From the NCBI GenBank assembly GCA_965219085.1, contig OZ244720.1, positions 707,684 through 771,683 of the forward strand: DNA of 64,000 bases. The letters are read 5' to 3'. This DNA is from Dehalococcoidia bacterium. GTDB taxonomy: Bacteria > Chloroflexota > Dehalococcoidia > UBA2979. Positions within the stretch are counted from its first letter, which is position 1. The number at the start of each line of letters is the position of its first letter. Below, in pieces: positions 9,001-22,916 of the stretch. Position numbers and translations under genes: made by a program. Below the pieces are notes generated by a model. It made no database searches, had not been told where the DNA came from, and saw only the letters and a program-made list of their open reading frames with translations.

Positions 9001-11227
9001 CACGACCTTGCGCACGAAGCCGGGTAAGACCAGGGCGGTGAACGTCACCTTCGAAGGGGACGGCCAGTTCAGCATCGGCTGGACCCAGCCCGAGAACGAC
9101 GGCGGGTCGCCCATCACCGGTTACCAGGTGCAGTGGAAGTCGGGCAGCCAGAGCTTCGGCGGCGATCCGTCGCGGGAGGACACCACCGGGGCTTCGCCGA
9201 GGACCTACGTCGTCACCGGGCTGACCAACGGCACCGCGTACACGGTGCGGGTGATTGCGGTGAACGCCGTCGGCGACGGCCCGCCGTCCGATGAGCAGAC
9301 AGCCACCCCCGTCGTCGGCAAGCCGGACGCGCCCGGCAACGTGCAGGCATTGTCGGGCAACGCCGAGCTGACCGTGACCTGGGACGGCCCCTACGACGGC
9401 GGCAGCGCCATCACCGAGTACACCCTGCAGTGGAAGTCGGGCAACCAGAGCTTCGGGGGCGATCCGTCGCGGGAGGACACCACCGGGGCTTCGCCGAGGA
9501 CCTACGTCGTCACCGGGCTGGCCAACGGCACCCAGTACGCGGTGCGGGTCAAGGCGACCAACACCAACGGCGACAGCGGCTGGTCCGTCGAGGCGACGGG
9601 CACTCCCCGTTCCAGCATCACCACCGGCGGCGGAGGCGGCGGTGGTGGTGGTGGCCCGTCGGGGCCCTCGCCGAGCGAGCTGGACTTCGAGTGGAACGTG
9701 AAGCGCGACCTCGAAGCGCTGGACGGCGGCCACGACACGCCGACCGGCTCCTGGTCCGACGGCACGGTCCTCTGGATCGCCGAGAACGGCCCGGGCGCCG
9801 GCGACGCCGTCTACGCCTACGACCTCCAGACCGGCGAACGGGTGGAGGAGCGCGAGTTCGAACTCGACGAGCGCAACCGCGCGCCGCGCGGCGTCTGGTC
9901 CGACGGCGAGACGGTGTGGGTCTCCGACAGCGGCCAGGACCGCCTCTTCGGCCATGACCTCGAGACGGGCGAGCGGCTGCCGGAGCGCGACCTCGAGCTC
10001 GACGAGGACAACGGCGCCGCCCGCGGCATCTGGTCGGATGGCGAGAGGATGTGGGTGCTCGACGGCGGCAAGGACAGCCTCTTCGCCTACGACCTCGGGA
10101 GCGGCGCGCTGGTGGCCGAGTACGCCCTCGACGACGCCAACGGCGACCCCCACGGCATCTGGTCGGACGGCGTCACGATCTGGGTCTCGGACCACGGCGC
10201 GAAGCGGCTCTTCGCCTACCGCCTCGATGATGGGGCGCTCGTACGCAACAGCGAGGAGGAGTTCACGGAGCTGAGCAAGGCCTCCAACAACAGCCCGCGC
10301 GGCATCTGGTCGGACGGCGAGGTGATCTACGTGGCCGACGAGAGCGACGACAAGGTCTACAGCTACAACATGCCCGACGCGATCGACGCGCGCCTCGCCT
10401 CGCTGACGCTGAGCGGCATCGAGATCGGGGAGTTCTCGGGGGACCGCACGGAGTACGACGGCGTCGCCGCCGAGGGCGTGACGGAGACGACGGTCGAGGC
10501 GGAGGCGCTGCAGCGCCGCACGACCGTCCTCATCGAGCCGGCCGACGCCGGCGGCGACGACACGAACGGCCACCAGCTGGCGCTGGAGGGCATCGACGCG
10601 ATCACGGTCACCGTGACCTCGGCCGACGGCAGCCGCACGCGCGTCTATCGCGTGCGGCTTGAGGGCGGCGCGGCGCAGGAAGCGCCCTGGACGCACTGCT
10701 TGCGCGGCGACATCGCTGAGGGCTTCAGCCTCGTCGTCTATGAGGGCGGCGGCGTCGAGGAACTGGTCACCTGCGCGGAGAGCCGCGATGTCGTGGCCCT
10801 CTACGCGCTGCACGGCGGCGAGTTCGTCTCGTACATCCTTGGAGCGCCGGAGTTCGTGAACCAACCGTTCGTCGAGCTGTTCGCCGATGGCGTCCCCCCG
10901 GTCACGCCGCTGGTCGCTGGGAGCAGCGGACCGCCATCAACGGACCCGAACCTCGGCGACGGCGCCCTGTTGCCCTGGCCGGAGTGCCTGCGCGGCGAGA
11001 TCGCCGCGGGCTTCAGCCTCGTCATCTATGAGGGCGGTAGCGTCGATGATCTCGTGGCCTGCGCGCAGAGCCTGGCCGTCACGGCCCTCTACGCGCTCCA
11101 CGACGGCGAGTTCGTTCCCTACATCCTTGGTGCGCCCGACTTCGTGAACCGCGACTTCAGGGAGTTGTTCGCCGACGGCCTGCCCGCCATCGCAGCACTG
11201 GTCGCCAGGAGCGAGGGGCACCCGTAG
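2..11227 (+). CDS. Giant surface adhesin, 5'-partial, more than 3730 aa. Order: NHL-like propeller repeats (about 700-1370); FN3 (about 1375-1650, 5290-5575, 8440-9600); Calx-beta-like (about 1660-1970, 2390-2700); about 11 cadherin-like beta-sandwich units of about 110 aa (2755-4450, 5581-7260, 7775-8420); one true cadherin domain (about 4985-5290); second NHL-like propeller (about 9690-10380); duplicated C-terminal Cys domain
   Basis: The frame is open from nt 2 (GTG at 35) with no in-frame stop. Repeats of the type LVLNDGxxDLTLTPAFASGTTSYxASVGN...ANTIKVKVTAED match the cadherin-like fold. FN3-like WKSG motifs occur. Repeats of the type D-N-x-x-P-x-G-[VI]-W-[ST]-D-G-x-T-[LI]-W-V-[AS]-D...LF-A-Y match NHL/propeller blades. 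Confidence 0.8.
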   Translation, partial: TGTTFTDADTGVPIYWLNGSKAADHYRDFYNGNWDQEASMRDEAGTIVFTFHPWTGSKHDGTEAFSSGDSRALGAASVRRGQPNSTVAGSGPLSSNSDASASEVGKFYALSDVFEVFTNSRPTAGPTISGFPQLGMTLTADASTIVDPDGTSGASFSYQWVRSEAGTDSEISGATATSYTLVEADVGTLIKVTVSYSDGEDMAETATSEPLGPVGRVVIDSAGNVDARGVWLESAAAGGFIIRLSDDEDDRVYGYTTGPLTHSPAHGFDLHADNGDATGIAAADGVLWVADRGDDQLFAYNVGASGTFGARLTAKEFDLHADNQRPAGVWTDGETLYVADPDEAKLFAYRVGAGGTFGESLADQDVALHADNDAPWGVWSTGTVIWVADRSDDFIYAYSLSAGGARLDAVALRWEWPLDTADGNTDPWGMWSDDDRLWVLDDGRSKLFAYYLPLPSAPDPPAAVAISGDGVGELTVEWEAPGDDGGSAISGYTVQWKSGAESFDSSREGTAAATARSQTIPNLTNDTEYTLRVQATNANGGSDWAETTGTPRAAAVSITGDTEFVREGTAAAFTLSRTGPAAAALTVSVLVTQEGSFIDGTLPTSVTIAAGDAEAPLRIATEDDDLGEDDGSIKVTITGVSSAIAISQTAGSATVAVRDDSDLKAKVSVDVESLTFAESVGTVTLKYAARMEPNVSPFAFAVSVLTDRGTARTLDGDFEGFSEHVTVAATDFQIENGQQVAHKTVDITINNNHAGRWEGDETFDFLVQRAPGTPGSVLVVDGDGNNAVGGATTTITIADNDAAPSLDMSVSPSLVEEGDSATLTVTIADGSAFAADQTIALTFSGTATRDVDYTADLATADVDALTLAAGLTEVAATVTVLDDAIDDDTGETIVIEAAHAGTSFSETYTLTIGVASLASDTALSALVLNDGTDDLTLTPAFASGTTSYAASVGNAVAQITVTPAKRDTDASLEYLDADDATISDADGMTAGQQVDLIEGENTIKVKVTAEDDATTETYTVVVTRAQRCDGTQLWCETMTVGTGAGTILGWSASGIVIAGGSLGGGDQDFDYGTHTYSFAIIFLSGTTLGIEFGAGAAGDLASTRTRDKLVFTVDGQAFGLGAGNLAANGRGVNWTSTGLTWMAGGTVDLEVVEAAVSTDAALSDLSLSDGTLAPAFASDTNTYTVGVANSVETITLTPAASHSWASVEYLDASDLPITDADGMTDGQQVALVVGANTIKVKVTAEDDATTQTYTLTVTRAVAGAATEATLSDLVLDDGTSELALTPAFASGTTSYTRWVGNGIDQITVTPETSDANASVEYLDAGDATISDADTMTTGQQIDLIEGENTIKVKVTAEDDATTETYTVVVTRAAPAASTDATLSGLVLNDGANDLTLTPAFASGTTSYAASVGNAVSQITVTPTKSDTDASVEYLDASDGAITDADGMTAGQQVALVEGANTIKVKVTAEDVITTETYTVVVTRAAPAASTDATLVSNEDATAGTGNSSVIHAQSFVTGTNAGGYTLSEIQIRLGDSSAVPGVTGVIAAVKADDSGAPGALVANLVNPGSLTADAFNAFTAPAGTTLSANTTYWVVINEERSSNSDRVRLFSTADDDEDIALTGWSIGDGRLWKSNASDASWNTSADSNLIIVKGTVKGGATNNAPVFADATTTRSVPENSAVGTNVGSAVTATDADSDTLEYTLEGTDAASFTIVSTSGQIQTKTGVTYNHEGTSSYSVTVKADDGNGGTDTIGVTVTVSDVNEVPSAPEAPDVTAASGTTDSLVVDWKEPANTGPAITDYDVQYRKGNSGAFTAWSHTDATTSATITGLEASTSYQVQVKARNDEGASAWSASGTGSTGSPASDAALTALVLNDGANDLTLTPTFASGTTSYAASVGNGIDQITVTPEKSDTDASVEYLDASDGAISDADGSASGQQVALDVGANTIKVKVTAEDATTTQTYTVVVTRAAPAASTDAALSGLVLNDGANDLTLTPAFASGTTSYAASVGNGIDQITVTPTKSDTNASLEYLDANGAIISDADGSASGQQVALDVGANTIKVKVTAEDATTTQTYTVVVTRAAPAASTDAALSGLVLNDGANDLTLTPAFASGTTSYAASVGNGIDQITVTPTKSDTNASLEYLDANGAIISDADGSASGQQVALEVGANTIKVKVTAEDATTTETYTVVVTRAAPAASTDAALSGLVLNGGANDLTLTPAFASGTTSYAASVGNGIDQITVTPTKSDTNASLEYLDANGAIISDADGSASGQQVALEVGANTIKVKVTAEDATTTGTYTVVVTRAAPAASTDAALSGLVLNDGTNDLTLTPAFASGTTSYAASVGNGIDQITVTPEKSDTDASVEYLDGNDAAISDADGSAAGQQVALDVGANTIKVMVTAEDATTTETYTVVVTRAMAGPVAPLPRPDTLVSNIGKANTGIAPLDAYDFTQEFTTGDNSDGYTLTSVDIEFGQVEEARITYAVSIREDKTGEPGRKIERLTDPARLSANALNTYTTSGIALAANTTYFVLVNSSTTHTTYLRYTSSDAEDSGAASDWTIGDASLLRFQHGGTWGTSSETIKIRINGTVTGADATLSGLALHDGANELTLTPTFSSGTTSYAASVGDAVSQITVTPTKSDADASVEYLDASDGAISDADGMASGQQVALVLGANTIKLRVTAADAMTTVTYTVVVTRAATASSDATLSGLLLNDGANELTLTPSFASGTTSYAASVGNAVSRITVTPEKSHTDASLEYLDGNDAAISDADGAASGQQVALVVGANTIKVEVTAADAMTTVTYTIVVTRTTGPGTEPGPPTNVQASGNAELGVTWDAPDDGGSAISGYTLQWKSGAESYSTTRQATVTTTTHTIPALTNGTTYTVRVKATNTHGDSGWTEITATPGSGAGVASVTVDQASITQTSADVIVTVENLQGVGHTVYVRYREAGANWPGSANLLLATSGTAITVTLAGLSGNTDYDVAASLDSGIAPGVRTASFTTLRTKPGKTRAVNVTFEGDGQFSIGWTQPENDGGSPITGYQVQWKSGSQSFGGDPSREDTTGASPRTYVVTGLTNGTAYTVRVIAVNAVGDGPPSDEQTATPVVGKPDAPGNVQALSGNAELTVTWDGPYDGGSAITEYTLQWKSGNQSFGGDPSREDTTGASPRTYVVTGLANGTQYAVRVKATNTNGDSGWSVEATGTPRSSITTGGGGGGGGGGPSGPSPSELDFEWNVKRDLEALDGGHDTPTGSWSDGTVLWIAENGPGAGDAVYAYDLQTGERVEEREFELDERNRAPRGVWSDGETVWVSDSGQDRLFGHDLETGERLPERDLELDEDNGAARGIWSDGERMWVLDGGKDSLFAYDLGSGALVAEYALDDANGDPHGIWSDGVTIWVSDHGAKRLFAYRLDDGALVRNSEEEFTELSKASNNSPRGIWSDGEVIYVADESDDKVYSYNMPDAIDARLASLTLSGIEIGEFSGDRTEYDGVAAEGVTETTVEAEALQRRTTVLIEPADAGGDDTNGHQLALEGIDAITVTVTSADGSRTRVYRVRLEGGAAQEAPWTHCLRGDIAEGFSLVVYEGGGVEELVTCAESRDVVALYALHGGEFVSYILGAPEFVNQPFVELFADGVPPVTPLVAGSSGPPSTDPNLGDGALLPWPECLRGEIAAGFSLVIYEGGSVDDLVACAQSLAVTALYALHDGEFVPYILGAPDFVNRDFRELFADGLPAIAALVARSEGHP
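5581..7260 (+). repeat. Five tandem, near-identical 336-bp (112-codon) repeats inside the giant adhesin gene
   Basis: Unit starts at 5581, 5917, 6253, 6589 and 6925. Each begins gcggcccccgccgcctcgaccgacgcggcgctgagcggtctggtgctgaacgac and differs by only a few substitutions. Confidence 0.9.
10681..11224 (+). other. Two tandem copies of an unnamed Cys-containing C-terminal domain of about 85 aa
   Basis: Copy 1 is 10681-10920 and copy 2 is 10966-11224. Shared motifs are CLRGEI-AEGFSLV-YEGG-V--LV-CA, ALYALH-GEFV-YILGAP-FVN, and FRELFADG. Confidence 0.6.
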
Positions 11228-11660
11228 GTGGCTCGACGGGGACTACGGGTGATGCGCTGTCCGGGTAGGCGCTCGCACCTGCGCGTATGAGGGCCGTTCT
11301 CCCCGAGGACAACCCGGGATGAGGCCGTCCGTTCGGCCTCACGTTCGCGTACGGGATGGCAGCGCAGACGGTCGCCGAAGGCTCGCGGTGACCGCGGTCG
11401 AGGACAGCGACCGGCCGAACCTGGCCTACGGCGCGCCCGGGCCGGCTCAGGCTCATACGGGGTGCTGGAGTAGGGGCAGCGACCCGGCCTGAGCGGGCCG
11501 GGACCTGCCGCTGTGCGGCGTCCGTGGCTGTCCGGCAGGGTTTCGGGCGACAAAGGAGCCCGCATACATGGACGTGCCCCGTGTCTTGCGGCCTTGCGGC
11601 CTTGCGCCCGCGCCGGCCGGCTCCTTAACGGCGAAACGGCTGCATACATGGACGTGCGGG

Positions 11661-11691
11661 GGAGGCCATCGCTCTGACAGCAATGGCCTCC
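11661..11691 (-). terminator. GC-rich hairpin just 3' of the helicase gene
   Basis: ggaggccatcgc...gcaatggcctcc forms a stem of about 14 bp with one mismatch. No U-tract follows, which is common in high-GC genomes. Confidence 0.35.
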
Positions 11692-11711
11692 CCTCCCTCG
11701 TGCCCCCCGGC

Positions 11712-13994
11712 CTATCCGGGTGTGCCGACCAGGCCCTCCTCGTGTTCCCGCTCCAGCGCCCACTCGAACAGGGAGAGCGTCGGAGCCTCGTCCCGACGCC
11801 GGCGCTTCGGATCGCCGGGCTCCCCGGCCATGAACTCCGCCCACGAGAACAGCGTCTGCTGCCGCTCCGGGGTTTCGTCATCGGCGTTGCCGCCAATGGG
11901 AAGGGCGGTGTGGCCGTTGCCATCGGCCCTGTTGGCGTGGACCTCGACGATCACCGGCTCGGGCGCACGCCAGCCGTCGTCGACCAGCAGCGCCTCGGCC
12001 TCCGCCGCGACCTGCTGCGCCTGGGCGAACACCGACTCGACCGAGCCGGCGTCCTCCTCCCCGGCGACGATCTTCCTCGCGAGCGCGAGCATCAGGTCGT
12101 CACCGTCGTCCCCATAGGCGGCGAGGCCGTCCTCGGGCAGCTCACCCTCAACCGCCAGCGACGATTGGAGCTTCTTCGCCACGAGCTTGAGGGCGTCGGC
12201 CTGCAGGGTGTTCCGGTAGGCCATGAAGACGACCTGCACGGGCTGCGTCTGGCCGATGCGCCAGGACCTGCGGGAGGCCTGGCGCATGGTGTACACGCTG
12301 TAATCCGTTTCGTACCAGCAAATCGTCGGGAACTCCACGAGGTCGAGTCCCGTCTGCACCAGCCGCGGGTGGCAGACGAGCACGTCGACGCCCTCCTCGA
12401 CCCGCTGCGCCACCCACGCCTCGCGGCGCTCGGGCGGCACGGCGTCCGCCTTCATCACCGCGACCCGGAAGCCGTGGCGGCCGAGGAACTCCTCCATGCG
12501 CCCGGTGATGTCGCGCGTGCCCGTGTGGGTCGCGTAGACGAGCACCCTCCGGCCCGCCAGACGCTCGGCGGCGACGAGGTCGACGAGCGCCTGCTCCTTC
12601 GGGTAGAGCTTTTCCGCAGGGAGGGGCGGCACCTGCACGAGCAGCTCCTCGGTCTCCGGGTCGAAGACCGCCTCGCCGCGCGTGCAGCCGTCGGGGTAGG
12701 CGAGCAGCGTCTGCAGGTAGGTGGCCAGCAGCCGCCGCGAGCCCTTCGAGAGCGCGTCCGCGAGCGCCGCCCGCAGCGTCTCGAAGAGCGTGTCGTAGCC
12801 ACTGCGCTGGGAGAGCCCCGTCGCATCGGCTTCCGTGTCCATCGAGGAGAGCAGCACGCGCTCCTCGTAGGGCGGGAGCCCCGAGGCCACGTCCGAGAGC
12901 CGCAGGAACACCGCGTTGCCGATGAGGTGGAAGAGGGCGGCGGGGGCGAGCCCCGGCCGCTCCCTGATCACCTTCCGGTACTTGCGGCGGCGGCTCGTGC
13001 GTCCGTCCTCCTCCGCGATGTCGTCGTCCCTGCCGATCGTGTGCTCGACGAAGCCGTAGCGCTCGATCCAGCGGCCCTCCTCGGAGCGCCCGAACTCCCC
13101 CCGGATCTCCGGGCTGAACCGGTAGAGCAGGTGGAAGAGCGTCGAGGAGTAGCCGCCCATCAGGGTTCCGCTGAGGCTGAGCGACTTGCCGCAGACGTCG
13201 GCGAGGATGCCGGCGGCGATGCCCTGGGCGGAGCCGCGCCCCTTGTACTCGTGCACCTCGTCACCGACCAGCAGGTCGAAGAACCGCTTCAGGCGGAGCT
13301 TCACGTAGTCCGCCAGCGGGTAGCGCTTCGGGCCCGAGCGGTCGGCCTGCCAGAGGCCGGAGCCGCACTCGCCGCAGCGGCGCTTGCGGCGGGCGAGGTC
13401 GCGGGCGAGCAGGGGCACGCCGTCCTTGTCCACGATCTGCGCATGGCAGTCCGGGCAGCACGGCACCTGGAACGGCTCGCCCGTCTCCTCGTGGCGCACC
13501 AGTCCCCGCGCGGTGGTGGCCCAGCGCTGCACGACGGCGGGCTGCCAGCGGTAGGAGAGCTTGGCGCGCTCGCGCGACATGATCGCGAAGAGCGGCCCGG
13601 TGCCGGTCGTGGCGCGCAGCCGCTCCAGGTCGGTGATCGAGGCGACGATCACGGCGCGGGCGCCGGGCACCGTCGCCTCGACCTCGCGCTTCCACTTGCG
13701 CGTGAGGTGCGGCGGGCAGAGCACGAGCACCCGCTCGAAGCCGGCCATATAGGCCGCCGAGGCGGCGATGAAGGTCTTGCCTGTGCCCATCTCCCCGACG
13801 ACGGTCGTGCCGCGCTGCGCCTCGAGCGAGAGCGCCGCGCCGCGGATGGCGTCGGCCTGCGCGCCCAGGGGAGCGCGTAGCAGGGGCGGGAGCGCCCGGT
13901 CCTGCTCGGAGGGCCGATAGCGGGGCGGGTACGACTCCACCACCCGCCGGGCGATGGCGTCGCGGTAGGCGTCGATGAATCCTGCGAGGTCCAT
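11712..13994 (-). CDS. SNF2/DEAD-like superfamily-2 helicase with an internal Cys4 zinc finger
   Basis: ATG at 13994 is preceded by AGGAACGG. Walker A is GEMGTGKT, the DExH box is LLVGDEVHEY, the zinc finger is CCPDCH...CGEC, and motif VI is QASRRSWRIGQ. Confidence 0.8.
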   Translation of the reverse strand: MDLAGFIDAYRDAIARRVVESYPPRYRPSEQDRALPPLLRAPLGAQADAIRGAALSLEAQRGTTVVGEMGTGKTFIAASAAYMAGFERVLVLCPPHLTRKWKREVEATVPGARAVIVASITDLERLRATTGTGPLFAIMSRERAKLSYRWQPAVVQRWATTARGLVRHEETGEPFQVPCCPDCHAQIVDKDGVPLLARDLARRKRRCGECGSGLWQADRSGPKRYPLADYVKLRLKRFFDLLVGDEVHEYKGRGSAQGIAAGILADVCGKSLSLSGTLMGGYSSTLFHLLYRFSPEIRGEFGRSEEGRWIERYGFVEHTIGRDDDIAEEDGRTSRRRKYRKVIRERPGLAPAALFHLIGNAVFLRLSDVASGLPPYEERVLLSSMDTEADATGLSQRSGYDTLFETLRAALADALSKGSRRLLATYLQTLLAYPDGCTRGEAVFDPETEELLVQVPPLPAEKLYPKEQALVDLVAAERLAGRRVLVYATHTGTRDITGRMEEFLGRHGFRVAVMKADAVPPERREAWVAQRVEEGVDVLVCHPRLVQTGLDLVEFPTICWYETDYSVYTMRQASRRSWRIGQTQPVQVVFMAYRNTLQADALKLVAKKLQSSLAVEGELPEDGLAAYGDDGDDLMLALARKIVAGEEDAGSVESVFAQAQQVAAEAEALLVDDGWRAPEPVIVEVHANRADGNGHTALPIGGNADDETPERQQTLFSWAEFMAGEPGDPKRRRRDEAPTLSLFEWALEREHEEGLVGTPG

Positions 13995-14115
13995 GGTTCC
14001 GTTCCTTTCGTCCTGTAGGGTTTGGCGAGCCGCGCGATGCGGCTTGTGACAGAGCGAGGCCCCGTCCCACGCGGGTGGTGGGGCGGGGCCTCGTGGTGCC
14101 GCTCGGAGTGAGCGG

Positions 14116-15152
14116 TCAGGCGGCGATGTCGGTGATCTCGCCGATGTCGAGGTCGAGAGCGACGACGGTGGTGCGCAGCCGCTCCCGGTAGACCTCTTTC
14201 TCAGGCGTGGTTTCCACCAGCACCATCTCCTTTGATGTCTTCCCCTTGACGAGGATGCGACTGCCCTCGGCCTCGAGTTGCAGGTTGTCGAGGAAGCCGG
14301 CCGCCACCAGCATCGCGAGGTGGCCGCGGCGCAGCGGCATGAGTGGCGCGTGCGCCCGTCCTCGGCCGGCCAGAGCGCGTCGGTCACCGTCGCGCTGACC
14401 CAGAGCCCGGAGCGCCGCGACTCCGCAGCCGCGGCCACCGGGTCGATAGTGCGGGTGGCGAAGAGCACCTCGCCGCCGGCGGTCGCCCGGGCGTTGTAGA
14501 CCGGATAGCGCTGGCGGCTCAGCTCCTCGACGTTGCCCTCCATGCACTCCTGCAGCCGCACGGCGCTGTACTGGTCGTACTGCACCTCGGCCTTGCGCGT
14601 GCCCATGACGACGACCTGGTCGAAGGCCTCACGCTCCGGGTCCGGGAAGGCCCAGCAGCGCAGCCGCGCGTAGTGCGAGGCGAGGTAGTTGGCGGAGCCC
14701 GCCAGCCGCCGCCTCGGCACGACGAACACGAGCAGCCCGTGCTCGGCCAGGTAGCGCGTGCAGTGCCTGAGGAACGCGTGCTCGGTGCGCTTCTCCTCGC
14801 CGGCGTCGTCGTCGTACGGGGGATTCAGGTAGAGCAGCCCGAACGCCCCGTTGGCGATCGACGTCTGGAAGAGGTCCGTGCCGAGCACGTGGTCGAGGCG
14901 GTCCTGCGCCTCCTTCGCGCGCTCGGCGTGGAGCTCCACTCCGTAGGTCTCGACGGCGGAGCCGTCGGGACGGTCGATGCGGGCGGCGAGCTGCGCGAGC
15001 GCATCCCCGGCCCCGCAGCAGGGGTCGAGGATGCGCAGCGTGGTCTCGCCGCGGGCAGTGCTGCGAGCCTGCATCAGGCTCGCGATCATCTCGGTGACGC
15101 GTGGCGGCGTCGGGTAGAAACCGCCCTTCGCCTGGGCTGCCAGTCTCATCTC
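14116..15152 (-). CDS. N6-adenine DNA methyltransferase with an apparent frameshift (or genuine disruption) near 14330-14400
   Basis: ATG at 15152 is preceded by GGAAGGAGA. Motif I is ILDPCCGAGDAL and motif IV is LNPPYDDD. From about residue 270 the reading frame turns to Cys/Trp-rich nonsense, while a clean C-terminus (LVAAGFLDNLQLEAEGSRILVKGKTSKEMVLVETTPEKEVY...) continues in another frame to the stop at 14116. Confidence 0.6.
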
Positions 15153-15811
15153 GTGTCTCCTTCCCTGGTCAGGGTTGTCGTGGGCTCCGCGGGCTCCTCC
15201 CGCGGCAGCGTGAGCGTCCCGGCCGCCACGGCGTGCGAGAGGTCCTCGCGCAGCGCCTCGGCATTCGGGGTGCAGCGGTAGGCGGCGATGCCTGCCGACT
15301 GCAGCGGTACGACCTCGGCCTCCGCCAGTCCCCGGTGCCACAGCCAGTCCGCCCAGCTGCGGTGCAGGGGCAGCGGGCTGCGACGATCGAGGAAGCGGTG
15401 GTGCAGGGCGGGTGCCTCCTCCTCGCCCGGGGCGAGCAGCAGGAACGCATCCCGCTCGAAGGCGTACTCGGCCATGCGCGTGTAGACGAGGGCGTGCCAG
15501 CCTCCCGAGACGGGCAGGCGGCCGATCTTCGTCGTCCACGTGCCGAGCGTCTCGTAGGGGACCTCGCAGCGGTGGAATCCGCCCGAGAGCACCGCCCCGT
15601 CCGTGCCGGCGAGCAGGTGCGCGGTCTCCGGCGGGTGCTTGAGGAGGGCGGCCCAGATTGCCTTGAGGGCGCTCTGGGCTCCGACCATCGAGAGGAACCA
15701 GAGTCCCTCCGAGTCGGGGTCGCGCGCGAAGGCGTCGGCCGTGGCCGAGAAGCCGTTCGCGCTGATCGTGTAGAGGTCCTGGGTGTCCGGGGCGGCGTGC
15801 GCCACGAGCAT
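15146..15811 (-). CDS. Hypothetical protein of 221 aa
   Basis: ATG at 15811 is preceded by GGAAGGAGA. Its stop overlaps the methyltransferase start as ATGA. Confidence 0.6.
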   Translation of the reverse strand: MLVAHAAPDTQDLYTISANGFSATADAFARDPDSEGLWFLSMVGAQSALKAIWAALLKHPPETAHLLAGTDGAVLSGGFHRCEVPYETLGTWTTKIGRLPVSGGWHALVYTRMAEYAFERDAFLLLAPGEEEAPALHHRFLDRRSPLPLHRSWADWLWHRGLAEAEVVPLQSAGIAAYRCTPNAEALREDLSHAVAAGTLTLPREEPAEPTTTLTREGDTR

Positions 15812-15873
15812 GGGCTGTCTCCTTCCGTACGTATCTGGTTGGTGGATTGCGCGGGCGAGCGCCCGCGTCTGCG

Positions 15874-16371
15874 TCAGCCGCCGAAGAGCCCGCGCTCCCG
15901 GAGGCTGACGGCTTCGTCGCCGATCACGATGTGGTCGAGCAACTCGATGCCGAGCAGCGTCGCCGCCTCCTCCAGCGCCTTCGTGACGTCGACGTCGTTC
16001 GTGCTCGGCGTCGCGTCTCCGCTGGGGTGGTTGTGGACGACGATCAGGTTCGGGACGGCCTCGACGACCGCCGGGCGCAGCACCTCGGCCAGCCTCACGA
16101 CCGCCGAGTAGCAGTTGCCGAGGTAGATCACCCGCTGGCCGACGACGCGGTTGCGGCGGTCGAGCAACAGCACGCGCAGTTGCTCCTGCGCGAGCGTCCC
16201 CATCTCCGGCCCCAGCAGGCGCTGCACGTCCTCGGGAGAGCCGATGATCGGAGCGTCGGGCTCGCGGTCGGGCCGCGTCTCGACCTCGTAGCGCACCGCC
16301 AGCTCGTTGAGGACATCGAGGTTGCTGCGCAGCGCCGCGAGCAGCGCGTCGGCGTGCCCGGTGGCGGTCAT
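15874..16371 (-). CDS. radC: RadC-like JAB/MPN-domain protein
   Basis: It has the JAMM motif VVHNHPSGDATPS and RadC-like length (165 aa). Its ATG overlaps the upstream stop as ATGA. Confidence 0.75.
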   Translation of the reverse strand: MTATGHADALLAALRSNLDVLNELAVRYEVETRPDREPDAPIIGSPEDVQRLLGPEMGTLAQEQLRVLLLDRRNRVVGQRVIYLGNCYSAVVRLAEVLRPAVVEAVPNLIVVHNHPSGDATPSTNDVDVTKALEEAATLLGIELLDHIVIGDEAVSLRERGLFGG

Positions 16372-16904
16372 GCCGCCACCTCCACGGGCAGCGCCTGCCC
16401 GAGCGGGCAGATGCAGTCCTGGTGGTCGGGAGAAGCGTCGTCGTCGCAGTCGAGGCAGTTGCCGCAGTTGCGGCAGGCCACCCGCTGGTGCGCCGCGTCG
16501 CGGGCGTGACGCCGGGCGACGGTGTCCTCCCAGCAGCAGTTCAGCTCGCAGTTGTCGCCGTGGTCGTCCCCTGCCGCGGCGGCGTCCTGCTCGCAGTCGC
16601 GGCAGTGCGTGCGCCCGCGCACGACGGGGTGGCCGCAGCCGGCGCAGTCCCCGCCGTAGTCGCCTGTGGCCTCGAGCTCGGCCCTCACCGTCCTCTGGAT
16701 GAGGGGGTGGCCGTCGGGGCCTTCGGACTCGGCGACGTAGTGCCAGGCCCACTTCATCCCGAGGTCGGCCCAGTCCGCGGTGCGGTAGGACCAGCGGTCG
16801 CAGGTGCAGTGGCCGTTGAAGTGGTCGGGACCCTCGAGCAGGGTCATGACCAGGTCGTGCCTGCTCACGACCGGCAGCTCGTGGTGATTGGTCGTCCGTG
16901 ACAT
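16368..16904 (-). CDS. Cys-rich hypothetical protein of 178 aa with multiple CxxC-like clusters
   Basis: ATG at 16904 is preceded by AAGGAGAA. It carries more than 20 Cys, for example CAGCGH, CRDCEQD, CRNCGNCLDCDDD. Confidence 0.6.
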   Translation of the reverse strand: MSRTTNHHELPVVSRHDLVMTLLEGPDHFNGHCTCDRWSYRTADWADLGMKWAWHYVAESEGPDGHPLIQRTVRAELEATGDYGGDCAGCGHPVVRGRTHCRDCEQDAAAAGDDHGDNCELNCCWEDTVARRHARDAAHQRVACRNCGNCLDCDDDASPDHQDCICPLGQALPVEVAA

Positions 16905-17023
16905 GGTCGGGTTCTCCTTCGTGGTTGATGGTGTCCGTGATGGATGCGGCGAGGCCGCCCCCTGAGGGAGCGGCCCCGTGTGCGCCCGCGTGTCGGCGGG
17001 CGGCGTCTGTGTGCCGTGGGTGG

Positions 17024-17422
17024 CTAGAAGGGCTGGTCGTCCGCCGTCGCGGCGGCGGCCTCCCGGCTGCCGTTCCCGTTGCCGTTCGTGCGCCCGTTGC
17101 CGTTTGAGTCGAGGAAGATGACCTCCTGCGCGTGCACCTCGCTGCGGTGGCGGCGCTGGCCGTCCTGCGTCTCGTAGCTGTTCTGCGCGAGCGAGCCCGC
17201 GACGAAGATGCGGTTGCCCTTCTTCACGTACTCGGCGACGGCCTCGGCCTGCTTGCCCCAGCAGACGACGCTGTGCCAGTCGGCCTCGGTCTCGCCGTTC
17301 TGACGGCGGCGGTCGGTCGCCAGCCTGAGCTGGCAGATCGCCGTGCCGTTCTGGCTGTACTTGAGCTCGGGCTCCGTGCCCACGCGGCCCAGCAGCTCGA
17401 TGCGGTTGATCGTGCGTGACAT
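17024..17422 (-). CDS. ssb: Single-stranded DNA-binding protein, copy 2
   Basis: MSRTINRIELLGRVGTEPELKY...WH.VVCWGKQAEAV...EV.A.EVIFL forms an OB fold, with the acidic tail DDQPF. ATG at 17422 is preceded by AAGGAGA. Confidence 0.85.
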   Translation of the reverse strand: MSRTINRIELLGRVGTEPELKYSQNGTAICQLRLATDRRRQNGETEADWHSVVCWGKQAEAVAEYVKKGNRIFVAGSLAQNSYETQDGQRRHRSEVHAQEVIFLDSNGNGRTNGNGNGSREAAAATADDQPF

Positions 17423-17568
17423 GTTCAGTCTCCTTCTGGTGATGGTTGTCACCGTGGCGGTGCGGCCTCGCCGCACCTGGTTCGAAACGACGGCGGGGCC
17501 GCCCCCGTCAGGGAGCGGCCCCGTGTGCGCCCGCGCGCGGCGGGCGGCGTCTGTGTGCCGGTGGTTGG

Positions 17569-17961
17569 CTAGAAGGGCTGGTCGTCCGCGACCTCGGCGG
17601 CGGCCTGCTGGCCACCGTTGCCGTTGGAGCGCCCGGTGCCGTTCGAGTCGAGGAAGATGACCTCCTGCGCGTGGACCTCGGTGCGGTAGCGGCGCTGGCC
17701 GTCCTGCGTCTCGTAGCTGTTCTGGGCGAGCGAGCCCGCGACGAAGATGCGATTGCCCTTCTTCACGTACTCGGCCACGGCCTCGGCCTGCTTGCCCCAG
17801 CAGACGACGTTGTGCCAGTCGGCGTCGGTCTCGCCGTTCTGGCGGCGGCGGTCGGTCGCCAGCCTGAGCTGGCAGATCGCGGTGCCGTTCTGGCTGTACT
17901 TCAGCTCGGGGTCGGTCCCGACCCGGCCCAGCAGCTCGATGCGGTTGATCGTCCGTGACAT
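17569..17961 (-). CDS. ssb: Single-stranded DNA-binding protein, copy 1
   Basis: It is about 94% identical to copy 2. ATG at 17961 is preceded by AAGGAGAA, and the tail is DDQPF. Confidence 0.85.
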   Translation of the reverse strand: MSRTINRIELLGRVGTDPELKYSQNGTAICQLRLATDRRRQNGETDADWHNVVCWGKQAEAVAEYVKKGNRIFVAGSLAQNSYETQDGQRRYRTEVHAQEVIFLDSNGTGRSNGNGGQQAAAEVADDQPF

Positions 17962-18154
17962 TTCAGATTCTCCTTTTGGTGTTGGTTGTCACCGTGGTGG
18001 TGCGGCCTCGCCGCACCTGGGTTCGAAACGACGGCGGGGCCGCCCCGAAGGACGGCCCCGTGTGCGCTCCCGGAAGGGAGCGTCTCTGCAGCGCGTGTGC
18101 TCCAGGCACCTGCGATGGGCACCTCCTTCCGTTTGCTTGTTGGCCTTCAGGCGC

Positions 18155-18873
18155 TCAGGCGGCCTTCGGCGTCTCGGTCGCGCCGTCCTCCCGGAGCTTG
18201 CCGGCCGCGGCCTCCACCAGCGGGGTGAGGGCCGCGACCGGGAGCTCGTCGAGATCCTGGCCCGTGCGCTCGCGCACGGCGGACCGCACCTTCGCCTCGT
18301 CGAAGCCGCGGCAGTTGCCGAGGTCGACGAGGGTCTTGCGCAGCGACGGCGCGAGCTCGCCCGTCGCCCCGTCGCCGTAGAGGCTGTTCCCGAACTGGTC
18401 GCCGTAGCTCCGCAGCGCCCGCTTGAGCGCATCCGTGACCGCGCCCTTGTGCGCGGTCTCGTGGCCCTCGACTGTCTCGTCCGCGACGGCCTGGAAGCCG
18501 ACGTCGGTACGCGAGGGCGAGCCGGGAACGGTCACCCGCACGGTCGCGGTGTAGGCGCGCCAGGGCTTGGCCTCGCCCGTCCTCGGGTCGACGCTCTCGC
18601 CCTCCCGTAGTTCGACGGGAGCGACCAGCTCGTAGCCCCAGCCGCCGTGTCCGAAGACGCGGTTGGCCTGGTCGATGACGGTGTACCCCTCGATGTAGGC
18701 GTAGCTGCGGTTGCCGCGCCCCTTGCGCTGCGAGACGAGACCCTCGTCGAGGGGCTCGCCGAGCCGCTGCGTGACGGCGGGTGGGAGGCTGTCCCACACG
18801 AGGTCGCGCTCCGGGACGGGCTCGGGGTGGACGCCGTTGCGGCTGCCGTTGACGGTCGGTGTTGCGTTCGTCA
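18155..18873 (-). CDS. Rad52/Rad22-family single-strand annealing protein
   Basis: ATG at 18873 is preceded by AAGGAGAG. Motifs RSYAYIEGYTVIDQANRVFGHGGW and HKGAVTDALKRALRSYGDQFGN match the Rad52 N-terminal annealing domain. Confidence 0.7.
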
Positions 18874-19076
18874 TGTGTCGCTCTCCTTCGTGCTGTGCAT
18901 GGCTGGATGGACTGGTTGCGGGCCTCCCCAGGGGGAGACCCGTGCGCGGGGCGGAGCCCCGTCGGTCAGCGGTCATCGCGCCTCCTTCCGGTTGGCGGTT
19001 GGCCGGCGGGCACACGGAAGCGGCCCGGCCCCTTCGGGGAGCCGGGCAGTCAATGCCCGTCGGTGGGATGGGTTGG

Positions 19077-20123
19077 TTAGCGGGCGGCGCGAGCCGCCCG
19101 TTCGAGCAGGCGCAGGAAGACTTCCCGCCCCTGCGGCTGGGTCGCAAGTTCGGCCACGTCGGCGATGCCCTGGGGCAGGGCCACGACGGCGGCGCGGCGG
19201 CCAAGCAGGCTGGTGAGCCGCGCCGCCGCCTCGCGTCCGGCGCTGTCTGCATCGAAGGCGATGAAGACGTTGGGGCAGCCCCGCAGGGCGGCGGCCACCC
19301 GCTCCATGCCCTGCGTGCCGAGGGCGGCGCAGGCGGGCAATCCCCACTCGCTCAGGACGAGCCAGTCGAAGACGCCCTCGGTCACGACCGCCCACGGCGA
19401 GGCGTGACCGACCCGTCCCAGCCCGAGCACGGGCTTGGGGCCGGGCAGCGACTGGAAGCGGGGCGAGCGCTCCGGGTCGATGGCGCGTCCCGTGAGCCAG
19501 CGGACGCGACCGCCCGCGACCTCGGGGACGACCACCATGCCGCCGAAGCGCTCGCCGTGCTCCGTGAACAGCCCGCTCTCGCGGATCCGTCCGGAGGTGA
19601 AGCCCGCGGACGCAAGTGCTGTCCGCAGCCCGCGCCCCGGCGCATGGCCGAGGCCGAGCCGCATGGCCGTGTCGAGGTCGATGCCCCGCGAGGCCAGGTA
19701 CGCCCTCGCCTTGGCACTGCGGCGAAGCTGCCCCGCGTAGTACCTCGCCGCCGCCGTCGCGATCGCCGGGTCGGGCGGCGGAACCGCCGTCCGAGCAGCG
19801 GCCCGTCGAGAGGCTCCGAGGTGGGCAGGAGCGGTCGTGGGCGGAGAGGCGTCGAGCCGCCGGATCGCCTCCGGCAGGCTCACGCCCTCGGCGCGCTGGA
19901 TGAAGTCCAGCACGTCGCCGCCCTCGCCGCAGCCGAAGCAGTACCAGCGCTCGGTGTCGGCGTAGACGGTGAAGCTGCCCTCGGCCTCCTCGTGGAAGGG
20001 GCAGATGCCCTGCCGGACGCGGCCCCTGCCGTGCAGGCGAACGCCCGACGCCTCCACCACGTCGCCCAGCGGGTGACGCGCCTTCAGCGCCGCGATGTCG
20101 ACGCGCGCTTGCGCGGCGACCAT
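19077..20123 (-). CDS. DNA primase with a CHC2 zinc finger and a Toprim domain
   Basis: The zinc finger is CPFHEEAEGSFTV...WYCFGCGEGGDVLDF. The Toprim part is VVTEGVFDWL...FIAFDADSAG. The ATG overlaps the upstream stop as TGATG. Confidence 0.8.
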   Translation of the reverse strand: MVAAQARVDIAALKARHPLGDVVEASGVRLHGRGRVRQGICPFHEEAEGSFTVYADTERWYCFGCGEGGDVLDFIQRAEGVSLPEAIRRLDASPPTTAPAHLGASRRAAARTAVPPPDPAIATAAARYYAGQLRRSAKARAYLASRGIDLDTAMRLGLGHAPGRGLRTALASAGFTSGRIRESGLFTEHGERFGGMVVVPEVAGGRVRWLTGRAIDPERSPRFQSLPGPKPVLGLGRVGHASPWAVVTEGVFDWLVLSEWGLPACAALGTQGMERVAAALRGCPNVFIAFDADSAGREAAARLTSLLGRRAAVVALPQGIADVAELATQPQGREVFLRLLERAARAAR

Positions 20124-20587
20124 CACGAGCTGCCCTTCGCCAGGGGCCGCAGTCCCCGCAGGCTGCGCCGCGAGACGACCTTGCCGGAGTGCCAGCGCAT
20201 CCCGAGGACGGCCAGCACCTCCAGTGCCCCGCCGGGCTGCGGGGCGAGCACCGCCGCTCGCCCGGTGGCGGGGCTGTAGACGACCGCCTCGCGCCCCGCG
20301 AAGCGCCGCCGTGTGACATCGAGCCATTCGGCGTACGCCCAGCGCGCCTCCTGCTCCGTGACCCTCTTCAGGTCCGCGCCGGCGAGCACCGCGAGCGCCC
20401 CGTCGAGGTCGCCCTGCCGCCTCAACCGCCGCGCCTCGTGGACGCTGCGGGCGATGCTCGGTTCGGGTTCCGGCGACGCTCCGAGGAGCGCCTCGAAGAC
20501 CCGGTCCACCAGCTCTTCGAGGCTGCGGCCGGGGCGGTCTCCCGCCACCTCCGCAGCCGTGTTCAGCGTTCCCGTTGCCATCGTCAT
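20123..20587 (-). CDS. Hypothetical protein of about 153 aa
   Basis: ATG at 20587 is preceded by AGGAGGA. It is translationally coupled to the primase gene. Confidence 0.5.
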   Translation of the reverse strand: MTMATGTLNTAAEVAGDRPGRSLEELVDRVFEALLGASPEPEPSIARSVHEARRLRRQGDLDGALAVLAGADLKRVTEQEARWAYAEWLDVTRRRFAGREAVVYSPATGRAAVLAPQPGGALEVLAVLGMRWHSGKVVSRRSLRGLRPLAKGSS

Positions 20588-20711
20588 TTCGTGTCCTCCT
20601 GTGGTGTGGTTCCTGGTGCCGGGTCGTGCGCCCTCGCGGGCATGAAGAGGGCCGCCTCCAAAGAGGCGGCCCCATGGCTGGGTGGATACGGTGGGCCGGA
20701 GCCCAGGGTCG

Positions 20712-21215
20712 CTAGCGCCGGACCACCCTCGTGCGGCGGCGGCCGGCAAGCAGCCGTGCGACGAAGATCGCCCCGGCACCGAGCCCGGCCGCGTTGAGCA
20801 CGGCCAGTTCACCGCCGTGGCCGAACAGCAACGGCGCCGCGAGCAGCGCCACCAACCCGACGACCACCGCGGGCTTCCGCCCACGCCTCGTTGGGCGAAC
20901 TGCGGGAGCCTCGGGCATCAGCTCGTAGGCCGTCCAGATGGGCAGCCCGATGACGCCCTCGACCGCGGTGACGGCGTGGGCGCGCGTGCAGCCGCCGGTG
21001 TGGCAGCGCACATCGATGCCGTTGCCGTCGGGCCGCTGCCGGAACGCCAGCCCGTCCGACGCGCCGCCGTGGCAGATGGCGGTAGTCGTCCAGAACCAGC
21101 CCCGCTCGAAGCTCACCCGCTGCGGGATGAGGTTCGCGATGCGGCCGGCGCTCGGTCCTGTGTACTGCTGCGCCGTGGCTCGCATCTCCATGGCGTCCCT
21201 CTGCTCTGTGTTCAT
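20712..21215 (-). CDS. Hypothetical protein with a Cys/His zinc-finger-like N-terminus and a C-terminal transmembrane helix
   Basis: ATG at 21215 is preceded by GAAGGAGG. It has CHGG...CHTGGC and a hydrophobic C-terminal segment. It is the first gene of the minus-strand operon. Confidence 0.55.
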   Translation of the reverse strand: MNTEQRDAMEMRATAQQYTGPSAGRIANLIPQRVSFERGWFWTTTAICHGGASDGLAFRQRPDGNGIDVRCHTGGCTRAHAVTAVEGVIGLPIWTAYELMPEAPAVRPTRRGRKPAVVVGLVALLAAPLLFGHGGELAVLNAAGLGAGAIFVARLLAGRRRTRVVRR

Positions 21216-21790
21216 GTCTCGTGACCTCCTTCGTCACTGCTGCGTTGCTGGTGACCCGTGTCGGCATCCGTGGCTCGGGTAATGGCTGGGTTGTCGCTGC
21301 ACGCACTCCGCCCACGGTCGGATGCCGGACCGGGGAACGGGGTGGCTGGGCCGCGCTCGTGCGAAGCGGCCGGCCTGCGAATCACTCGCGGACGGGCTCG
21401 GTGCAGGGGCGGCGGACGTGAGGAACGGGCCGAGCGCAGGACGCACTCCGCCCAGAGACTCCGGGGCCGAGTGCAGGATGCAACTCGCCCGCGGTCTCCC
21501 GGCGTTCGAGGCAACGTCGGGGGAGCAGCGCTCGACCCTTCTGCTGCCTCCCGCTGCGGGAAGGCGGTTGTCCCTCACTGGATCGCCGTCGGGAGAGCAG
21601 GGCTCTATCCGTCGGGTCGGTCCGGGTCCGGGATGGACCCTCCAGGTTTCTACGGCAGGAAACGCTGGCAAAGCCGGAAACTGCTTGGCAGTGTCGCCTA
21701 GTCCCCGCACCGATGGAAGGGGGTTTGGGCCTCCCGCGCCGAATCACTTGCTGCGATGTAGCTGCGATGTAGCGGGGGCCGACCGGGGCC
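21216..21790 (-). promoter_or_regulatory. 575-bp leader and promoter region of the minus-strand establishment operon, with internal repeats
   Basis: It is noncoding. The 13-mer cgcactccgccca occurs twice (about 21300 and 21440). A tandem ctgcgatgtag x2 sits at 21751-21772. Confidence 0.4.
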
Positions 21791-22756
21791 CTACTTCCGC
21801 CACAACCCGAGGGTCAGCACGCGGCGGACGCAGCGCCAGAACAGCGCCCAGCGGCGCTCCGCCCGCGCGTCTGCCAGCGACTGCTCGCGCCGCCACATCT
21901 CCTTGTCGCGTTCGAGGCGGTCCCAGGGGTAGTAGGCCGGCAGCAGCGTCAGTGCGTGCTCCCGGATGAGGACGAGCTCCAGCTCCCGCATGCGCACCCA
22001 GGCGGTGGCGCGGGCCAGCCTGCTTCTGCCCTGGTCGATGTGCTCGACCCGCACCCGCCGCCACTCCACGATGAGCGGCATCGCCTCGCAGTAGACGAGC
22101 TCCTCGCCGGGCTCCGGCTCCAGCGTGACGATGTCAGGGTACGTTCGCCGGGGCGGGGTGCCCGCCGGTTCCCCGCCGACCGCCGGCCGTGTGTCCGGGT
22201 CGACCGGGGGCAAGGTTGCCAGCCGCCGTTCCCACTGCCTGAGTGTCTGCGCCTGCGCCTCCCGCAGATCCGCGAGGTCGCCGCGGACGGCGTCGAGCCC
22301 GCTTCGCACCGTCTCCTCCAGCGCTCCCGTGCGCTGCTCGAGGGCGCTGAGGCGCTCGCCTTGCCGCACCACCTCGGAGCGCTGATCGGCCAGCAGCCGC
22401 CGCTCCAGTGCCGAAGCCAGGCGCGGCACGAGCCGCCCCGAATTCATGCTCCGCCAGAGCGTCTTGCGGTCGACGCCCAGTTCCTCCGCCGCCTTCACGC
22501 GGCCCACCCGCTTCACGAGGTCGTGCAGCAGCGCCATCAGCCGCAGCTCGCGCACGCTCTCCAAGCTCGGCGTCTCGCCCGTTGCGTCCGGCGCTCCGCC
22601 GTTTGCCGCGCCTCCGTCCATGTTCCCGTTTGCCCCATTTCCCGGCTGTTCTGGAACATCGCCCCGCGCCCGGGGATGTGCCCGATGCCCCATATCCCGG
22701 CGCTCCTGCCCCATGGCGGTGGAATCCGCACTGGAACCGGATTGCTTGCTCGTCAC
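21791..22756 (-). CDS. HTH-containing putative regulator with a coiled-coil region; start codon uncertain
   Basis: The HTH is LMALLHDLVKRVGRVKAAEELGVDRKTLWRSM. Later it has heptad-like Leu/Arg/Glu-rich segments. The gene is divergent from the transfer genes. Confidence 0.5.
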   Translation of the reverse strand: MTSKQSGSSADSTAMGQERRDMGHRAHPRARGDVPEQPGNGANGNMDGGAANGGAPDATGETPSLESVRELRLMALLHDLVKRVGRVKAAEELGVDRKTLWRSMNSGRLVPRLASALERRLLADQRSEVVRQGERLSALEQRTGALEETVRSGLDAVRGDLADLREAQAQTLRQWERRLATLPPVDPDTRPAVGGEPAGTPPRRTYPDIVTLEPEPGEELVYCEAMPLIVEWRRVRVEHIDQGRSRLARATAWVRMRELELVLIREHALTLLPAYYPWDRLERDKEMWRREQSLADARAERRWALFWRCVRRVLTLGLWRK

Positions 22757-22872: not shown

Positions 22873-22916
22873 ATGCCTCATAAGGGAGGTCACGCGTGAC
22901 CTCCCTTATGAGGCAT
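22873..22916. promoter_or_regulatory. Perfect 44-bp palindrome (22-bp arms) in the divergent intergenic region
   Basis: atgcctcataagggaggtcacg|cgtgacctcccttatgaggcat is an exact reverse complement. It lies between the HTH gene start (22756) and the first transfer gene (22989). Confidence 0.9.

Follow-up and report, generated by a model that had tools for sequence, protein, structure and literature searches.

The 64,000-nucleotide stretch analysed here and referred to throughout as the window (contig OZ244720.1, positions 707,684 to 771,683, assembly GCA_965219085.1, from a Dehalococcoidia bacterium) carries an integrative conjugative element (ICE), and within it an operon of eleven genes. The last three of these genes encode an unnamed protein of 221 aa, here called B, a DUF6094 methyltransferase and an SNF2-like helicase, and as judged from sequence and profile comparisons, B has been kept as a partner of the DUF6094-helicase pair by conjugative elements from three or more phyla. 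We lean towards the view that the operon as a whole is a DNA-processing, establishment and anti-restriction module of the ICE, and the best reading of its gene content appears to be as single-gene versions of the domains that are fused into 'polyvalent proteins' elsewhere.

A conserved core of three genes

The core lies at the 3' end of the operon and consists of the following genes.

15146-15811, minus strand: B, 221 aa, unnamed family
15149 to 14116, minus strand: DUF6094 N6-adenine-type methyltransferase, 344 aa after frame repair (see below)
13994 to 11712, minus strand: SNF2/SF2-type helicase or translocase, 760 aa, with ResIII and Helicase_C domains

Protein families were scanned with four hidden Markov model libraries (Pfam, NCBIfam, PHROGs and PADLOC), in none of which B, or the operon proteins K, J and D described below, found a match. 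The methyltransferase matches DUF6094 (2.8e-30) and N6_Mtase (5.7e-6) in Pfam and retains an intact NPPY motif at residue 109 and an intact S-adenosylmethionine motif, ILDPCCGAG, at residue 40 (FxGxG-type). The helicase has intact GTGKT and DEVH motifs, carries a four-cysteine insert (CCPDC...CGECG) and matches PHROG 62 at 2e-36; its homologues are annotated 'SNF2-related protein', and its assignment to the SNF2 clade rests on weak profile matches (DrmD, ZorD and PHROG 62).

B has 721 close homologues (67-95% identity), and a profile search of 1.8 billion cluster representatives placed 500 of them in the family, 235 at E<1e-10. The AlphaFold2 model of the protein is of high confidence (pLDDT 93, pTM 0.85) and gave no match to a known fold. 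Gene order persists where sequence similarity is low: a distant B homologue, P0199 (~31% identical), is encoded between a UvrD-like helicase gene and a DUF6094 gene, after which comes the helicase gene, and in the related locus L081 the adjacency of B, methyltransferase and helicase is kept at ~30% identity. A search started from P0199 returned P0199 alone. No match was found for the whole module against the PLSDB plasmids (megablast), or for B and two distant B homologues against plasmids (tblastn), and only the helicase neighbour and profile comparison led to homologues of B on plasmids. The helicase family is present on 316 plasmid records, 117 of them typed conjugative, and in all four of the records inspected, whose helicases are 36-46% identical, a DUF6094 gene precedes that of the helicase.

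On the conjugative plasmid pOCEPR01 of Oceanithermus profundus (MOBC, MPF_T) the gene before DUF6094 encodes a B homologue of 209 aa (hhalign 97.5%, E 5e-12, full length), which is followed by a DUF6094 protein of 341 aa and a helicase-related protein (44% identical); the three genes are joined by 4-nt overlaps, and upstream of them is a co-oriented ArdC-like gene. This replicon differs from the element in the window in being a plasmid rather than an ICE and in having no radC, Rad52, SSB or primase gene by the triad in the 17 kb inspected. The same order of three genes is found in the pKLC102/PAPI-1-type ICEs of Pseudomonas (MPF_G, MOBH), where a 201-aa protein encoded before DUF6094 is a remote B homologue in profile-profile comparison (95.7%, E 9e-9, 175 columns; 67% when compared as a single sequence) and the third gene encodes a DEAD/DEAH-type helicase (~37% identical). 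These ICEs, too, have variable cargo directly downstream of the helicase gene, and in PAPI-1 islands TraG and 'a putative helicase' flank a defence hotspot (PMC12629846), which parallels the variable DNA downstream of the helicase here. In other respects pKLC102 is unlike the element described here: it has another type of type IV secretion system (T4SS), a tyrosine instead of a serine integrase and a longer methyltransferase (481 aa), the relaxase family differs from the Replic_Relax family found here, and the pKLC102 triad is co-oriented with traD, whereas ours is divergent from the T4SS operon.

The order on a Vibrio pVA1-like plasmid is radC, DUF3275, DUF6094, a hypothetical gene and SNF2, and on Thermoanaerobacterium pMU3262 genes for an ADP-ribosyltransferase and a Rad52 protein come after the DUF6094-helicase pair, the adjacency of methyltransferase and helicase being kept in elements of Chloroflexota, Deinococcota, Pseudomonadota and Bacillota. 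Membership of B in DUF3275 was considered and rejected: B has no match to PF11679 even at E<=1, and alignment of the B profile or the pKLC102-family profile with Vibrio DUF3275 gave hhalign probabilities of 0.1-1%, so that no relationship between the families is detectable. Apparent RadC+B and MutS_I+B fusions among the longer B homologues look like gene-call artefacts.

What is retained from phylum to phylum, and with T4SS, relaxases and integrases of unrelated types, is the unit of B, DUF6094 and the helicase, frequently with radC. Within it, the most likely role for B would be that of an adaptor, or of a subunit that regulates the methyltransferase-helicase pair. A bolder proposal, which we hold tentatively and with some doubt, is that the three proteins are an ancient dedicated machine in which ATP-driven translocation is coupled to the methylation of newly transferred DNA and in which B would provide loading or targeting, for example to a junction of single- and double-stranded DNA or to a host defence protein. 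Such a three-subunit machine would be common to ICEs and plasmids of Chloroflexota, Deinococcota and Pseudomonadota that have unrelated T4SS, relaxases and integrases.

Organization of the operon

Raw lists of open reading frames (ORFs) were swamped by spurious frames because the window is ~70% G+C, and genes were therefore called from frame plots of third-position GC content (GC3) together with stop-to-stop translations. The GC3 frame plot and the ORFs define eleven genes on the minus strand between 11712 and 21215, all co-oriented and in the transcription order K, J, primase, Rad52, SSB1, SSB2, D, RadC, B, methyltransferase, helicase. The genes upstream of the core are listed here, together with the co-oriented gene N, which lies outside the coordinates of an earlier note on this DNA that had been made from the sequence alone.

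21791-22756, minus strand: N, 321 aa (GC3 frame plot)
20712-21215, minus strand: K, 167 aa (ORF and frame plot)
20123-20587, minus strand: J, 154 aa (ORF)
19077-20126, minus strand: CHC2-Toprim primase, DnaG-type (Pfam, NCBIfam and motifs)
18155-18874 (alternative start 18976), minus strand: Rad52/Rad22-family single-strand annealing protein (Pfam and NCBIfam)
17569-17961, minus strand: SSB1, single-stranded DNA-binding protein, 130 aa (Pfam SSB 7e-35; TIGR00621 8.5e-38, above its cut-off)
17024-17422, minus strand: SSB2, 132 aa (Pfam SSB 7.6e-33)
16368-16904, minus strand: D, 178 aa, Cys/His-rich
15874-16371, minus strand: RadC-like JAB-domain protein, 165 aa (Pfam RadC 5.2e-35)

Frame plot, ORFs and matches in Pfam, NCBIfam and PHROGs show that the genes named in the earlier note are real and stand in the minus-strand order that it gave; it had counted ten, but its list holds 11. 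Its description of the module as translationally coupled applies to three of the ten junctions, where genes overlap by 4 nt (GTGA at J/primase, ATGA at D/RadC and at B/methyltransferase), and not to the others, which are gaps of 62-202 nt, each bearing a GAAGGAG-type ribosome-binding site. K is separated from N by a non-coding gap of 575 nt, and consensus scans of the operon found no sigma-70-type promoters or canonical terminators.

The primase matches Zn_ribbon_DnaG (7.7e-20), Toprim_3 (4.8e-10) and DNAG_N (5.7e-5) in Pfam and TIGR01391 (3.6e-38) in NCBIfam, and its CPFH...CFGC, EGVFD and DADSAG motifs are intact, as is the HNHPSG motif of RadC. The annealing protein matches Rad52_Rad22 (7.2e-26, Pfam) and TIGR00607 (1.6e-21, NCBIfam). 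K has a cluster of cysteines and histidines (CH...CH..C) followed by two C-terminal hydrophobic segments (residues ~113-135 and 137-157), and D contains 15 Cys and 13 His. N gave only sub-threshold Pfam matches, a weak one to HTH_8 and a coiled-coil-like one, and may possibly be a regulator. The two ssb genes are products of a tandem duplication of a 573-bp unit (16956-18072, 93% DNA identity), which has left them with near-identical upstream regions; the closest relative, L002 (93% identical), has a single ssb, and the duplication is recent and specific to the window.

In the raw sequence a single open frame runs from 15149 to 11712 and gives an apparent methyltransferase-helicase protein of 1145 aa. 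The frame plot shows that the coding frame switches for ~270 nt within the methyltransferase gene, and DNA alignment to the related loci L002, L003 and L004 maps a 1-nt deletion to a C run at ~14346 (14340-14350); the methyltransferase is fused in silico to the helicase ORF because the wrong frame meets no stop. Intact homologues of the methyltransferase are separate genes of 344-352 aa. Other loci have sporadic single-base indels of their own, and the deletion is therefore most likely a long-read homopolymer or assembly error and not the sign of a pseudogene.

Related loci and their variable slots

A pattern scan with B, using one genome per species, gave 504 encoding sites, and 79 loci were kept, all of them in metagenome-assembled genomes of Dehalococcoidia, Tepidiformaceae or other Chloroflexota. 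When these were searched with all window proteins (tblastn), the order N-K-J-primase-Rad52-SSB-(D)-RadC-B-methyltransferase-helicase was found in ~70 of the 79, at 45-97% protein identity and with divergent p241/p587 genes upstream; an arrangement that recurs in so many independent loci is far beyond chance. In most of the related loci N is found 5' of K/J, with 29-58% identity. K is present in ~40 of the 79 relatives, J is directly 5' of the primase gene in 68 (median gap 3 nt) and radC is kept upstream of B in 80. The earlier note had singled out the Cys-rich protein, RadC and the 221-aa protein as a conserved trio, which does not hold for the first of them: D is confined to the nearer half of the family and missing from the ~34 more distant loci. 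The N-terminal motif of D recurs in a 118-aa protein encoded in the radC-B slot of other loci.

Up to five copies of the element occur per chromosome. Contig OZ253575.1 carries five (L028, L033, L035, L037 and L038) and OZ241859.1 four (L010, L024, L031 and L054), so that single Tepidiformaceae chromosomes, in genomes of 3-3.8 Mb, hold 4-5 diverged copies (B 74-81% identity), an unusually high ICE load.

The ORFs inserted in variable slots were clustered and representatives scanned against domain families. A full-length ardC (ArdcN 2e-35 and MPTase-PolyVal 7e-38) lies between radC and B in 19 relatives, and a TSCPD protein together with a protein of ~350 aa is encoded between Rad52 and SSB in 72 instances; the C-terminus of the latter contains cysteines and looks Cas4/RecB-like by eye, only the neighbouring TSCPD being confirmed by Pfam. 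Other slots hold DUF7007 (30 instances) or DUF2958 (14 instances). In several operon slots there are reverse transcriptase/maturase genes of group II introns (L057 11048-13042 and 15 other sites). On a distant branch a PRTRC cassette, consisting of PRTRC_C (ubiquitin-like), PRTRC_B, PRTRC_A (JAB) and a PRTRC ThiF-family protein, is placed between the helicase gene and the terminal hairpin described below (L077 14700-19100; also L042, L044, L047, L048, L063, L073 and L080). Directly past the helicase gene of L001 (14609-18584) are genes for two KAP-family NTPases, a QatB-family protein and a QueC-like (QatC-type) protein, cargo of a defence type whose position matches that of the defence hotspot in PAPI-1 islands. 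The copy in the window has none of the slot inserts (ardC, the ~350-aa/TSCPD pair, DUF7007, DUF2958, intron or PRTRC cassette).

The integrative conjugative element

Divergent from the operon is a set of conjugation genes in the order p241, TrbL/VirB6, a 587-aa protein, VirB4-like ATPase, coupling protein and relaxase, followed by regulators and an integrase.

23255-24589, divergent from the operon: TrbL/VirB6 (TrbL domain)
26895-29426, divergent from the operon: VirB4-like ATPase (P-loop_TraG, AAA_10, TraC_F_IV)
29474-32089, divergent from the operon: coupling protein (TrwB_AAD_bind)
32083-33759, divergent from the operon: relaxase (Replic_Relax PF13814 1.3e-9, above its cut-off)
33.8-35.2 kb, minus strand: four small helix-turn-helix (HTH) regulators, adjoining the relaxase gene
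37041-38702, plus strand: large serine recombinase (Resolvase, Recombinase, Zn_ribbon_recom)
38666-38739, minus strand: tRNA-Gln(CTG), overlapping the last 37 nt of the serine recombinase ORF

PF13814 is counted among the relaxase families (PMC11541004). An RDD protein is encoded between the HTH regulators and the serine recombinase; beyond the tRNA gene, whose 3' end abuts the element beside gltX, come gltX, a pseudouridine synthase gene and lspA, the chromosomal flank. Since VirB6, VirB4, coupling protein, relaxase, a boundary integrase and the chromosomal flank are all present, the element is a T4SS-type ICE in a high-GC Dehalococcoidia (Tepidiformaceae-like) chromosome. This bears out the placing of the operon in an integrated conjugative element by the earlier note. 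On the left, the closest relatives cease to resemble the window in DNA sequence at 11625-11642, immediately beyond the helicase gene, and the conserved backbone of the ICE is at least ~27 kb long (roughly 11.63-38.67 kb). The two putative ends were compared for direct or inverted repeats of att type, with no convincing result; the window contains no second copy of the tRNA-Gln 3' end and no clear terminal inverted repeats.

Beyond the left edge and convergent with the helicase gene, a giant ORF on the plus strand (2-11227, more than 3742 aa, running off the window start) encodes 12 cadherin-like beta-sandwich and five fn3 repeats with a periodicity of 336 nt; as it is outside the backbone common to relatives, the ORF belongs either to the chromosome or, as an adhesin gene, to the cargo of the ICE. 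The chromosomal flank on the other side holds an insertion-sequence cluster (43590-51212) with two IS110-family transposases (43590-45011, plus strand; 48961-50175, minus strand), an IS481-type integrase-core transposase (47663-48643) and a DDE_Tnp_1 transposase (50226-51212). At the divergent junction of gene N and the T4SS operon there is a perfect 44-nt palindrome (22873-22916, with the arms ATGCCTCATAAGGGAGGTCACG and CGTGACCTCCCTTATGAGGCAT), in which each strand has its own ribosome-binding site (GGGAGG) and GTG start. A palindrome with a different stem is kept in L057, L064, L070 and L071, and the structure is probably an operator or mRNA hairpin that controls both operons.

A conserved non-coding element (11562-11693, minus strand) closes both the operon and the conserved backbone. 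It is composed of a hairpin with a 15-bp stem (11659-11693), followed by two copies of GTCCATGTATGC (11642-11653 and 11562-11573; 0.05 copies expected) and a T-rich tail. The hairpin-plus-motif arrangement stands at the backbone end of at least 30 related loci, with 1-3 tandem units ~40 nt apart, and the stems vary in sequence between loci yet always fold (-27 to -45 kcal/mol in per-sequence folding). No Rfam family matched the element. Candidate roles for it are those of an origin of transfer (oriT), of a terminator, of a primase (ssi) site and of a component of an att site. The HTH genes beside the relaxase gene (33.8-35.2 kb) were considered as an alternative leading region and proved to encode HTH regulators.

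A possible role in establishment and anti-restriction

In the establishment and anti-restriction role that we favour, SSB would coat the strand after single-stranded DNA transfer, the CHC2-Toprim primase would prime synthesis of the complementary strand and RadC, a JAB-fold protein, would process nucleic acid or protein, all as expected from knowledge of these families. The Rad52-type protein, which in most relatives is paired with an exonuclease-like gene, would assist the incoming DNA in recircularisation or recombination. The DUF6094 methyltransferase, the SNF2-like translocase and B would act as a unit, tracking along the new duplex and methylating it before restriction enzymes of the recipient cut, as has been proposed for P1 DarB.

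Several lines of published work are consistent with this scheme. Polyvalent proteins and the corresponding solo-gene neighbourhoods contain adenine methylase-SWI2/SNF2 pairs, RadC, DnaG-type Toprim primases and ArdC-N with MPTase domains (PMC5512222); primases are transferred and prime single-stranded DNA (PMC5512222); and the archetype of the 'DNA methylase-helicase dyad' is P1 DarB, by which the DNA of phage P1 is protected in cis (Iyer et al., 2017; PMC5512222). The likeness to DarB that the earlier note saw in a methyltransferase beside a helicase agrees with this published dyad, and an adenine methyltransferase with a (D/N)PPY motif is indeed what the window encodes. P1 DarB and the polyvalent proteins share with the operon the coupling of an adenine methyltransferase to a SWI2/SNF2-type ATPase, RadC, a DnaG-Toprim primase and, in relatives, ArdC-N and MPTase domains, as well as the neighbourhood of a T4SS element. 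They differ in that each domain here has a separate gene instead of being part of one fused polypeptide, and the dyad differs further in that the methyltransferase here is of the uncharacterised DUF6094 family and preceded by a third partner, B, that has no Pfam family.

The note's statement that leading regions carry ssb and anti-restriction methyltransferase genes is likewise in line with the families reported as enriched there, namely orphan methyltransferases, SSB, ArdC and primase/helicase (Samuel et al., 2024; PMC11541004), and a plasmid-borne methyltransferase, M.EcoGIX of pESBL, protects entering DNA (Fomenkov et al.; PMC7736820). With leading-region islands (PMC11541004; PMC7736820) the family shares SSB, an orphan adenine methyltransferase and a primase, ArdC in relatives, and co-orientation of the genes; the window itself has two SSBs and an orphan adenine-type methyltransferase. 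M.EcoGIX, on the other hand, is a small stand-alone enzyme without a helicase partner. Homologues of psiB, ardA and klcA and known anti-CRISPRs were not detected in the protein scans. The ICE context, the intact catalytic motifs, the retention of gene order in ~70 of 79 loci and of the triad in distant elements, the presence of ardC within the operon in 19 relatives and the ATGA overlap of B and the methyltransferase gene also speak for an establishment and anti-restriction role.

Other observations weigh against this interpretation. The methyltransferase reads as frameshifted in the window, B has no recognisable fold or motif pointing to a role, and a literature search found no experimental reports on the operon proteins or DUF6094. 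The operon is transcribed divergently from the T4SS/relaxase operon and no oriT was found for the element, so that a leading-region position with early entry or expression is at most a possibility. If the terminal element were an oriT of the usual polarity, nicked 3' of the hairpin on the strand that has the hairpin before the motif, the operon would enter last; if it were nicked on the plus strand of the window, the operon would be the leading region. Finally, replication of the excised element in the donor is a task that primase, SSB and helicase could serve just as well. A module for such replication and for maintenance, by which the excised ICE would replicate in the donor and later the transconjugant with its own primase, SSB and SF2 helicase, while Rad52 and RadC would repair or resolve intermediates and the methyltransferase would mark the element for regulation or self-recognition and not for escape from restriction, seems to us rather unlikely. 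The first three proteins do form a minimal replisome-accessory set, an 'STY4534 family ICE replication protein' is encoded a few kb upstream of the DUF6094-helicase pair in pKLC102-type ICEs, the conserved hairpin and tandem motifs at the operon 3' end could be an origin or primase site, and the presence of as many as five copies in one chromosome points to high activity of the element. However, no initiator (Rep) gene was found in the operon (Pfam, NCBIfam), the helicase is of the SNF2/ResIII type, without DnaB- or PcrA-like features, and always paired with the methyltransferase, and the gene inserted in the operon of 19 relatives, ardC, belongs to a demonstrated anti-restriction family.

That B, DUF6094 and the helicase form instead a methylation-based defence system of the BREX, DISARM or MADS kind, carried as ICE cargo against phages or competing plasmids, is improbable. 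Similarity in PADLOC/NCBIfam to mad2 (8e-14, methyltransferase) and to DpdE, ZorD, DrmD and BrxH (1e-8 to 1e-3, helicase) would fit such a system, as would the KAP NTPase, QatB and QatC-like genes just past the helicase in L001 and the defence hotspot at the PAPI-1 site between TraG and 'a putative helicase' (PMC12629846). Yet the scores are far below the cut-offs (DrmD 23 bits against 610; MAD2 16.5 against 720), the PADLOC matches are weak, partial and to generic methyltransferase and helicase cores, with none for B, RadC, D, K or J, and the pair is accompanied by no nuclease, phospholipase D (PLD), protease or other effector partner, which also counts in favour of the establishment reading. 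The triad, moreover, is in the invariant backbone between radC and the element end and not in a variable cargo slot, and triad or pair is found in conjugative elements of three phyla beside ArdC, RadC or Rad52. ICEs of the SXT/R391 group have a bet/exo/ssb recombination module, whose annealing protein is of the RecT/Bet family. There is an equally slight chance that the operon is such a module, in which Rad52, an exonuclease, SSB and RadC would promote recombination between the many resident copies of the element and so give hybrid ICEs, the triad being a neighbour with no part in this. Both have a single-strand annealing protein and SSB encoded on an ICE, the ~350-aa Cas4/RecB-like protein between Rad52 and SSB in relatives could be the exonuclease, and there are several element copies per genome with mosaic slot contents. 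The annealing protein here, however, is of the Rad52 family, the copy in the window has no exonuclease-like gene, and recombination would account for only 2-4 of the 11 genes and is compatible with an establishment role rather than an alternative to it.

Implications

Primase, SSB, Rad52 and RadC are ordinary for conjugative elements, and the operon is in this respect a gene set of known kind. The literature search found no description of such ICEs in Dehalococcoidia/Tepidiformaceae, a lineage whose ICEs appear to be undescribed and in which a prolific T4SS-type family is documented here. Many conjugative elements, among them Vibrio pVA1-like plasmids and Pseudomonas ICEs of clinical relevance, have the DUF6094-helicase pair in their backbone, and the analysis shows that a third, unnamed family, with a confident structural model and no known relative, travels with it across phyla. 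If the pair and B do carry out translocase-driven anti-restriction methylation, the triad would help to set the host range of the ICE, and the three-subunit machine would be an undescribed and widespread counter-restriction mechanism, which the Pseudomonas homologues make directly testable.

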